Positions 1 through 2,326 of a DNA stretch of 2,326 bases are shown one piece after another (position 1 is the stretch's first letter; each line of letters starts with the position of its first letter). The notes beneath the pieces were generated by a model that saw only the letters and a program-made list of their open reading frames with translations, was not told the origin of the DNA and made no database searches. The position numbers and the translations under genes were made by a program. Origin of the DNA: Escherichia coli (GTDB lineage: Bacteria; Pseudomonadota; Gammaproteobacteria; Enterobacterales; Enterobacteriaceae); NCBI RefSeq assembly GCF_003334355.1, contig NZ_QOWP01000076.1; one strand, given 5' to 3'.

Positions 1-122
1 TTTGCTCTTTAAAAATCTGGATCAAGCTGAAAATTGAAACACTGAACAACGAAAGTTGTTCGTGAGTCTCTCAAATTTTCGCAACACGATGATGAATCGT
101 AAGAAACATCTTCGGGTTGTGA
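1..122 (+). other. 3' portion of the 16S-23S internal transcribed spacer (pre-23S leader), expected to carry the 5' strand of the 23S precursor processing stem cleaved by RNase III
   Basis: AT-rich non-coding sequence immediately upstream of the mature 23S 5' end (GGTTAAGCGACTAAGCG at 123). The string TTTGCTCTTTAAAAATCTGGATCAAGCTGAAAATTGAAACACTGAACAACGA...GAAACATCTTCGGGTTGTGA matches my recollection of the enterobacterial ITS just before 23S. No tRNA cloverleaf is evident in these 122 nt, so any spacer tRNA lies upstream of the window. Confidence 0.8.

Positions 123-2326
<2,204 letters not shown>

Follow-up and report, generated by a model that had tools for sequence, protein, structure and literature searches.

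A leader-trailer processing helix of pre-23S rRNA at the spacer/23S boundary of an Escherichia coli rrnE-type operon

The window, by which we mean the whole 2,326-nucleotide stretch of Escherichia coli DNA analysed here, contains the terminal part of a 16S-23S spacer (positions 1-122) followed by a 23S rRNA gene that is truncated by the window end. The mature 23S rRNA starts with GGTTAAGCG at position 123, which corresponds to position 1 of the bacterial LSU rRNA model RF02541, and the segment from 123 to 2326 carries a 23S annotation in every matching genome. All 5426 complete E. coli genomes contain a match to the window, and the median number of matching places is seven per genome. The best match is E. 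coli PSS-12, which is identical at 2325 of 2326 bases. The sole difference between the window and this match, the best among the 5426 genomes, is located at position 1651, inside the 23S gene (A against G). The window therefore originates from a genome outside this collection or from another rrn copy. The gene order in PSS-12 is purH - 16S - tRNA-Glu - 23S - 5S - yjaB - metA, and by this gene context the window is a piece of the rrnE-type operon at the rrnE position. A tRNA scan of the full window returned no tRNA. Positions 1-400 were scanned on both strands and contained no promoter-like sites, including sigma-70-like promoters, no terminator-like site on the plus strand, and only mechanical open reading frames of 21-51 amino acids. 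A single terminator-like match on the minus strand of this segment is inside the 23S gene and at chance level. An antisense or coding reading of positions 1-400 was dropped, as the promoter, terminator and open reading frame scans gave nothing credible.

The initial annotation of this DNA placed the 5' strand of the RNase III processing stem of 23S rRNA in the spacer and its partner strand outside the window. The partner was retrieved from the PSS-12 locus (L001), which has one mismatch to the window, within the 23S gene; the trailer is thus that of the best-matching genome and may differ from that of the window's own source. Window position 1 corresponds to L001 3501, the 23S 3' end is at L001 6528 (...CUUAACCUU), the trailer begins at L001 6529 (trailer +1), and mature 5S rRNA begins near L001 6621. 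The features of the window are summarised in Table 1.

Table 1. Features of the window and their predicted partners; trailer nucleotides are numbered from the first nucleotide after the 23S 3' end.
Feature	Window positions	Strand	Pairing partner, score or basis
Spacer boxA (TGCUCUUUAAAAA; TGCTCTTTAAAAA), Nus-factor loading site upstream of 23S	3..15	+	sequence match
Rfam RF01830 StyR-44	7..115	+	124.9 bits vs gathering score 54; model positions 1-107 of 107
Distal leader strand, right after boxA	14..35	+	pairs with trailer +55..+34 (AUUUUCAGCCUGAUACAGAUU); cofold
Local GAAA-tetraloop hairpin, side branch of the leader-trailer structure	40..62	+	-10.8 kcal/mol, z -3.6; seen in cofold
Leader UCUCUCA	67..73	+	pairs with trailer +32..+26 (GAGAGA motif); cofold
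Leader UUCGC	78..82	+	pairs with trailer +25..+21; cofold
Internal "trailer mimic" UCGCAACACGAUGAUG	79..94	+	pairs with 107-122 in the leader alone, hiding the stem strand
Local hairpin ACGAU-gauga-AUCGU	86..100	+	side branch once the long-range stem forms; cofold
Core helix, leader strand	103..122	+	pairs with trailer +19..+1 and the last 2 nt of 23S; cofold, RNAalifold consensus
RNase III cut position, leaves 7 extra nt (GUUGUGA) on pre-23S	115..116	+	published cuts placed on the cofold duplex
23S nt 1-8, 5' strand of helix H1	123..130	+	pairs with L001 6526-6519; extends the processing helix unbroken
23S rRNA	123..2326	+	RF02541 model positions 1-2228, 2063.9 bits; window end truncates the gene

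The boxA at the start of the window matches the leader boxA of the same operon (L001 1497-1509; consensus TGCTCTTTAACAA) at 12 of 13 positions. These are the two boxA matches in the 9.3 kb of L001, vs 0.01 expected. It was reported that a second boxB-boxA-boxC set is located upstream of 23S rRNA, and that boxA binds NusB/NusE and enables assembly of the antitermination complex (PMC10250234 and another paper). The locus also contains an exact 11-nucleotide direct repeat, CATCTTCGGGT, with one copy at window 107-117, in the leader strand of the RNase III stem, and the other at L001 3477-3487, 24 to 14 nucleotides upstream of window position 1, in a boxB-like UUCG hairpin before boxA. No such repeat is expected by chance in 9.3 kb. 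The repeat is probably a coincidence, because other genera are devoid of it.

The structure formed by the two 23S flanks was predicted by RNAcofold of window positions 1-135 with L001 6505-6625. It contains 59 intermolecular leader-trailer pairs and has an energy of -105.3 kcal/mol. The core of the structure is formed by positions 103-130, which make 28 pairs with L001 6547-6519, corresponding to trailer +19 to +1 and approximately the last nine nucleotides of 23S rRNA. A bulged G at trailer +6 is the sole interruption of this 28-bp helix, whose length agrees with the 27-bp helix of PMC10250234 and exceeds the about two helical turns (20 bp or more) expected across the cut sites. The leader strand immediately precedes the first nucleotide of mature 23S rRNA and is paired from 103 to 130 without interruption, so that the helix passes directly into helix H1. 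Three interrupted segments of the leader pair with more distal parts of the trailer, and the outermost of them begins right at the 3' end of boxA. The hairpin at 40-62 has a GAGA loop in K-12 rrnB instead of GAAA, and in many genera it is replaced by a far longer hairpin with a conserved CCGUAAUAAG loop.

The extended complementarity to the 23S 3' flank that the initial annotation anticipated is thus present in the 59 predicted pairs. The annotation assigned the stem strand to the last ~60 nucleotides of the spacer, and the strand is located there, but the continuous helix uses only the last 20 of them (103-122) together with nucleotides 1-8 of 23S rRNA. The proposed boundaries of 60-130 enclose the strand; however, the paired positions within them are discontinuous (67-73, 78-82 and 103-130), and the interrupted pairing runs upstream to position 14, where it abuts boxA. 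Positions 84-102 are outside the long-range stem and form a local hairpin.

The conservation of the helix was analysed in operons from Enterobacterales. A 30-mer taken from the central part of E. coli 23S rRNA was used for a single scan of species-representative genomes. It provided 87 stretches, and for 51 operons the fetched DNA included both ends of 23S rRNA. The operons originated from Citrobacter, Enterobacter, Leclercia, Pantoea, Mixta, Tatumella, Erwinia-like strains, Edwardsiella, Sodalis, Symbiopectobacterium and Gilliamella. The scan also found the E. coli-type 30-mer on contigs of 268-2405 bp (L007, L011, L071, L078) in assemblies labelled as Streptomyces abyssalis, Marinobacter sp., a Bacteroidales MAG and Lactobacillus selangorensis, which is most likely due to enterobacterial contamination. 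The stretch from Pantoea sp. 1.19 (L009) contained the 23S 5' end twice, at oriented positions 1982 and 2201, 219 nucleotides apart with N between them. This duplication is probably an assembly artefact, and the stretch was excluded from the analysis.

All 41 of the 41 distinct mini-precursors, folded singly, form flank-flank stems of 16-61 bp. The whole mini-precursors of 31 operons were aligned with MAFFT (alignment A1). RNAalifold of A1 independently identified 27 pairs that match window 103-130 exactly, seven of them with compensatory changes. When the E. coli structure was imposed on A1, 88.5% of the cells were standard pairs, vs 36-44% when the 3' partner was slid by 1-3 columns. Double-sided changes were present at 21 of the 59 pairs, compared to 12.9 +/- 1.9 in shuffles, and none of the 500 shuffles reached 21; the covariation score was 0.172 vs 0.105. 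The core helix (helix 6) is the best-preserved part of the structure, with 97.8% of the cells paired, eight covarying pairs and 17 invariant pairs, and the pairs of positions 123-130 are either invariant or covarying. In helix 5 (78-82) all five pairs show compensatory change, with 67.8% of the cells paired in an indel-rich part of the alignment. Helix 4 (67-73) has two covarying pairs and is 72.5% paired, and helices 1-3 (14-35) include six pairs with compensatory change and are 70-96% paired. Alignment A1 is good at the core helix and visibly shifted where the variable hairpin and the distal trailer contain indels. Therefore, the pairing of the distal helices (68-89%) is underestimated, and folds of individual sequences were used to complement A1. 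Among the compensatory changes of helices 1-3, the pairing of CUGGAU with AUACAG in E. coli corresponds to CCGGAA with UUACCGG in Pantoea. Sets of compensatory changes were observed between E. coli (leader AAACAUCUUCGG, trailer CCGAAGAUGUUU), Citrobacter (leader AAACACCUUCGG, trailer CCAAAGGUGUUU), Enterobacter sp. JUb54 (leader AAACAGCUUCGG, trailer CCAAAGCUGUUU) and Mixta (leader GACGCCUGUGG, trailer CCACAGGCGUUU). The boxA at 3-15 is nearly invariant across the genera in A1.

The complementarity between positions 60-122 and the trailer might have been a product of chance or a by-product of the low-complexity spacer sequence. The binding energies were compared with those of 300 dinucleotide-preserving shuffles of the trailer. 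The full leader (1-122) forms 57 bp with a binding energy of -33.0 kcal/mol, whereas shuffled trailers form 21 bp with -12.1 +/- 3.2 kcal/mol (z -6.6). The core (100-122) binds with -19.3 kcal/mol, compared to -5.8 +/- 2.5 kcal/mol for shuffled trailers (z -5.4). For the exact interval 60-122 with trailer +1 to +37, the excess is only z -2.3, and some shuffled trailers bind as well as the native one (-13.9 kcal/mol observed, -20.5 kcal/mol for the strongest shuffled trailer), as a fortuitous match would predict. The score of this interval is weak because the leader and trailer each fold strongly on themselves, which lowers the net binding term. Therefore, we relied on the tests of the core and the full-length leader and on covariation. 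The excess of binding in these two tests, the 21 pairs with compensatory change and the loss of pairing after sliding the partners by 1-3 columns speak against a fortuitous match, to which we ascribe practically no probability. Chance complementarity was ruled out by the shuffles, the RNAalifold consensus and covariation. The placement of the leader strand of the RNase III stem before position 123 by the initial annotation is borne out by the cofold, the shuffles and the covariation in Enterobacterales.

The positions of the RNase III cuts were taken from the literature and placed on the predicted duplex. The mapped pre-23S intermediates of E. coli and Salmonella carry seven extra nucleotides at the 5' end and eight at the 3' end (-7/+8), and a review puts the 5' extension at +3 or +7 and the 3' extension at +7. 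An alternative cut at -3 would map between positions 119 and 120, and the +8 cut maps after L001 6536. In the cofold duplex, position 115 pairs with trailer +7, 114 with +8, and 113 with +9. Therefore, the -7 and +8 cuts leave a 2-nucleotide 3' overhang on the excised leader fragment. The published cuts (-7 and +7/+8) face each other in the predicted helix with the stagger expected for RNase III. The bulged purine at trailer +6 adjoins the cut and is kept in the aligned Enterobacterales. For the leader-trailer helix that RNase III cuts in E. coli pre-23S rRNA, lengths of 27 bp (PMC10250234) or about 30 bp (a second paper) were described, and leader-trailer helices were reported for 98.4% of prokaryotic 23S genes. 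[quoted passage not shown] Disruption of the helix was reported to harm 50S biogenesis (Liiv & Remme 1998, cited in PMC10250234 and two further papers). Positions 103-122 together with nucleotides 1-8 of 23S rRNA (123-130) are almost certainly the leader strand of the E. coli pre-23S leader-trailer processing helix. The assignment is based here on the complementarity of the flanks, which is greater than expected by chance and kept by covariation, and on the agreement of the published cuts with the predicted duplex. Cleavage, trimming and the role in 50S assembly are adopted from the literature.

The leader strand of the core helix can also pair within the spacer. The 5' arm of the resulting local hairpin (79-94), UCGCAACACGAUGAUG, resembles the trailer sequence ACAACGCCGAAGAUG. 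The segment 60-122 alone folds with -18.8 kcal/mol (z -2.8), with positions 79-85 paired with 116-122 and 87-94 with 107-114. The complementarity of the E. coli leader to its own stem strand reaches -18.2 kcal/mol, vs -8.5 +/- 2.0 kcal/mol for shuffled upstream sequence (z -4.8), and leader-internal complementarity is significant in 17 of 29 distinct leaders. Such complementarity is missing from Gilliamella and Sodalis, and only a short stretch of it occurs in E. hormaechei, Leclercia and Edwardsiella. RNAalifold of 24 Enterobacteriaceae/Erwiniaceae leaders alone (alignment A2) recovered only the outer seven pairs (79-85/116-122). Four of these seven pairs are standard in all 24 leaders and the others in 21-22 leaders, and almost all of the changes are wobble-compatible. 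The inner part of the local hairpin corresponds to the 3' hairpin of the RF01830 StyR-44 consensus. Because the register of the inner arms varies between genera, per-sequence partner tables, a swap test and shuffles were preferred to a covariance model for the assessment of the hairpin. At position 109, the leader contains U, C or G across genera, and the local and trailer partners both contain A, G or C; both partners follow the changes of the leader strand. In the cross-species swap test, native combinations gave -7.8 kcal/mol vs -5.6 kcal/mol for swapped ones, and the test was positive for some lineages and not for others.

The stability of the folded leader, its excess of internal complementarity over shuffles, the retention of the outer helix in the 24 leaders and the presence of the inner helix in the Rfam consensus would be compatible with the local hairpin (79-94 with 107-122) being the functional structure and the complementarity to the trailer being secondary. 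However, the hairpin and the long-range helix are mutually exclusive, and the latter is much more stable, with -25 kcal/mol for leader -22 to -1 with the trailer alone and -105 kcal/mol for the whole structure. The long-range helix is present in every operon examined, including those of Gilliamella and Sodalis, which lack the local hairpin, and RNase III was reported to cut both the leader and the trailer. We therefore find it hardly credible that the local hairpin is the functional structure. We prefer to regard the hairpin and the long-range stem as consecutive stages of a single pathway and not as alternatives. It is possible, though doubtful, that the hairpin 79-94/107-122 of Enterobacteriaceae/Erwiniaceae did not arise by accident but was selected as a co-transcriptional placeholder. 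As a placeholder, positions 79-94 would fold back on 107-122 once transcribed and hold the strand during the synthesis of 2.9 kb of 23S rRNA. The true trailer would then displace the mimic by forming the more stable helix, and after cleavage the same hairpin might help the excised fragment to let go. The idea of a placeholder may already be covered by the work of Liiv & Remme 2004 on transient pre-23S structures.

The long-range helix also bears on the match of the spacer to the StyR-44 family, which is classified by Rfam as a gene. If the region were an independent sRNA gene, a trans-acting role of its product would explain the conservation. The strong Rfam match agrees with this possibility, and so do the cloning of a 109-nucleotide cDNA, its detection by northern blotting in S. 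Typhi and E. coli, its growth-phase regulation (PMC2943607), and its listing as an sRNA in later transcriptome papers. However, the RNA is encoded upstream of 23S rRNA in all seven rrn operons of the genome and is processed from longer precursors (PMC2943607, Chinni et al. 2010). The region is inside the rrn transcript and is not flanked by a promoter or terminator of its own on the plus strand of window positions 1-400. The 3' end of the StyR-44 match is at position 115, which is, to the nucleotide, the -7 cut of RNase III, and the conserved blocks are accounted for by boxA and the covarying pairing with the trailer. The discoverers describe StyR-44 as a part of the ribosomal operon and allow for a metastable maturation intermediate (PMC2943607). 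We consider an independent sRNA gene very unlikely. Because its 3' end coincides with the -7 cut, promoter and terminator are lacking, and boxA and trailer pairing account for the conservation, StyR-44 is most simply interpreted as the excised spacer fragment released by RNase III. This by-product could have a secondary function. The 5' end of the StyR-44 model, at window position 7, is inside boxA, in a stretch predicted to be single-stranded. RF01830 models the leader by itself with local hairpins; the trailer partner, boxA and RNase III, which account for the boundaries and conservation of StyR-44, do not form part of the model. The match to RF01830 is thereby attributed to a by-product that RNase III generates during rRNA maturation, and not to a separate gene.

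Based on the predicted structures and the published processing sites, the maturation of the 23S ends can be proposed. The leader strand would be transcribed just before 23S rRNA, and approximately 2.9 kb later in the same transcript the sequence past the 23S 3' end (ACAACGCCGAAGAUGUUUU...) would be made and pair with it. For the 16S helix it was proposed that NusB-bound boxA retains the leader strand at the RNA exit channel up to the emergence of the trailer, and by analogy the boxA complex in the spacer could hold the 23S leader near the exit channel for the same period. The pairing would close 23S rRNA into a giant loop on the 28-bp helix with one bulged G, and the three interrupted helices (leader 78-82, 67-73 and 14-35 with trailer +21 to +55) would prolong the structure back to the spacer boxA. 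RNase III would cut both strands of the core, the leader at 115/116 and the trailer after +7/+8, and free pre-23S rRNA with seven extra nucleotides at the 5' end and seven or eight at the 3' end. Exonucleases would trim these to the mature ends, with RNase AM acting on the 5' side and RNase T on the 3' side, so that helix H1 remains. The excised leader fragment would be the RNA cloned as StyR-44.

The processing stem is an ordinary textbook element and presents no surprise to a specialist. The helix has been known since 1980 and is catalogued across all prokaryotic phyla. It is biologically important, as it was reported to be needed for 50S assembly. The value of its identification in the window is in annotation, since it fixes the boundary between the spacer and mature 23S rRNA and accounts for the conservation of this spacer segment.

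The closest known counterpart is the 23S stem of K-12 rrnB (Bram, Young & Steitz 1980; Liiv & Remme 1998), which represents this element in a different rrn operon of E. coli. The comparison with rrnB suggested by the initial annotation showed that the site is identical except for leader positions 53 and 100, which are unpaired with the trailer, and trailer +13. Position 53 is in a hairpin loop and position 100 in a local hairpin, and beyond the site the rrnB trailer (L089) also differs from that of PSS-12 at +82. The rrnB flanks fold into the same structure with -99.1 kcal/mol, and the core helix and cut-site sequences, GG/GUUGUGA in the leader and ACAACGCC/ in the trailer (the slash marks the cut), are the same as here. 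At trailer +13 (L001 6541), rrnB has a C, which forms a U.C mismatch opposite window 109, whereas the A of the rrnE-type operon of PSS-12 forms a full pair. Therefore, operons of one species differ in the perfection of their RNase III helix. Published descriptions give the helix 27-30 bp, and 31 further pairs, which reach to window position 14, are supported here by covariation.

The 16S leader-trailer helix hLT with boxA-boxC (Young & Steitz 1978; PMC10250234) has the same logic, in that the flanks bracket an rRNA and RNase III cuts both strands, and it also has a boxA just upstream of its leader strand. However, hLT differs in the rRNA that it brackets and in its sequence, and its cuts leave 115 and 33 extra nucleotides, compared to 7 and 7-8 on 23S rRNA. 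The 23S helix, unlike hLT, passes without a break into helix H1 of the mature rRNA. The 23S leader strand starts immediately after boxA, whereas that of hLT starts 18-19 nucleotides after it. The pre-23S stem of B. subtilis also brackets 23S rRNA by leader-trailer pairing and is cut by a double-strand-specific nuclease, as in E. coli. The mature ends in B. subtilis are formed by a second double-strand cut, made by Mini-III with L3 after RNase III, whereas those in E. coli are formed by exonucleolytic trimming.
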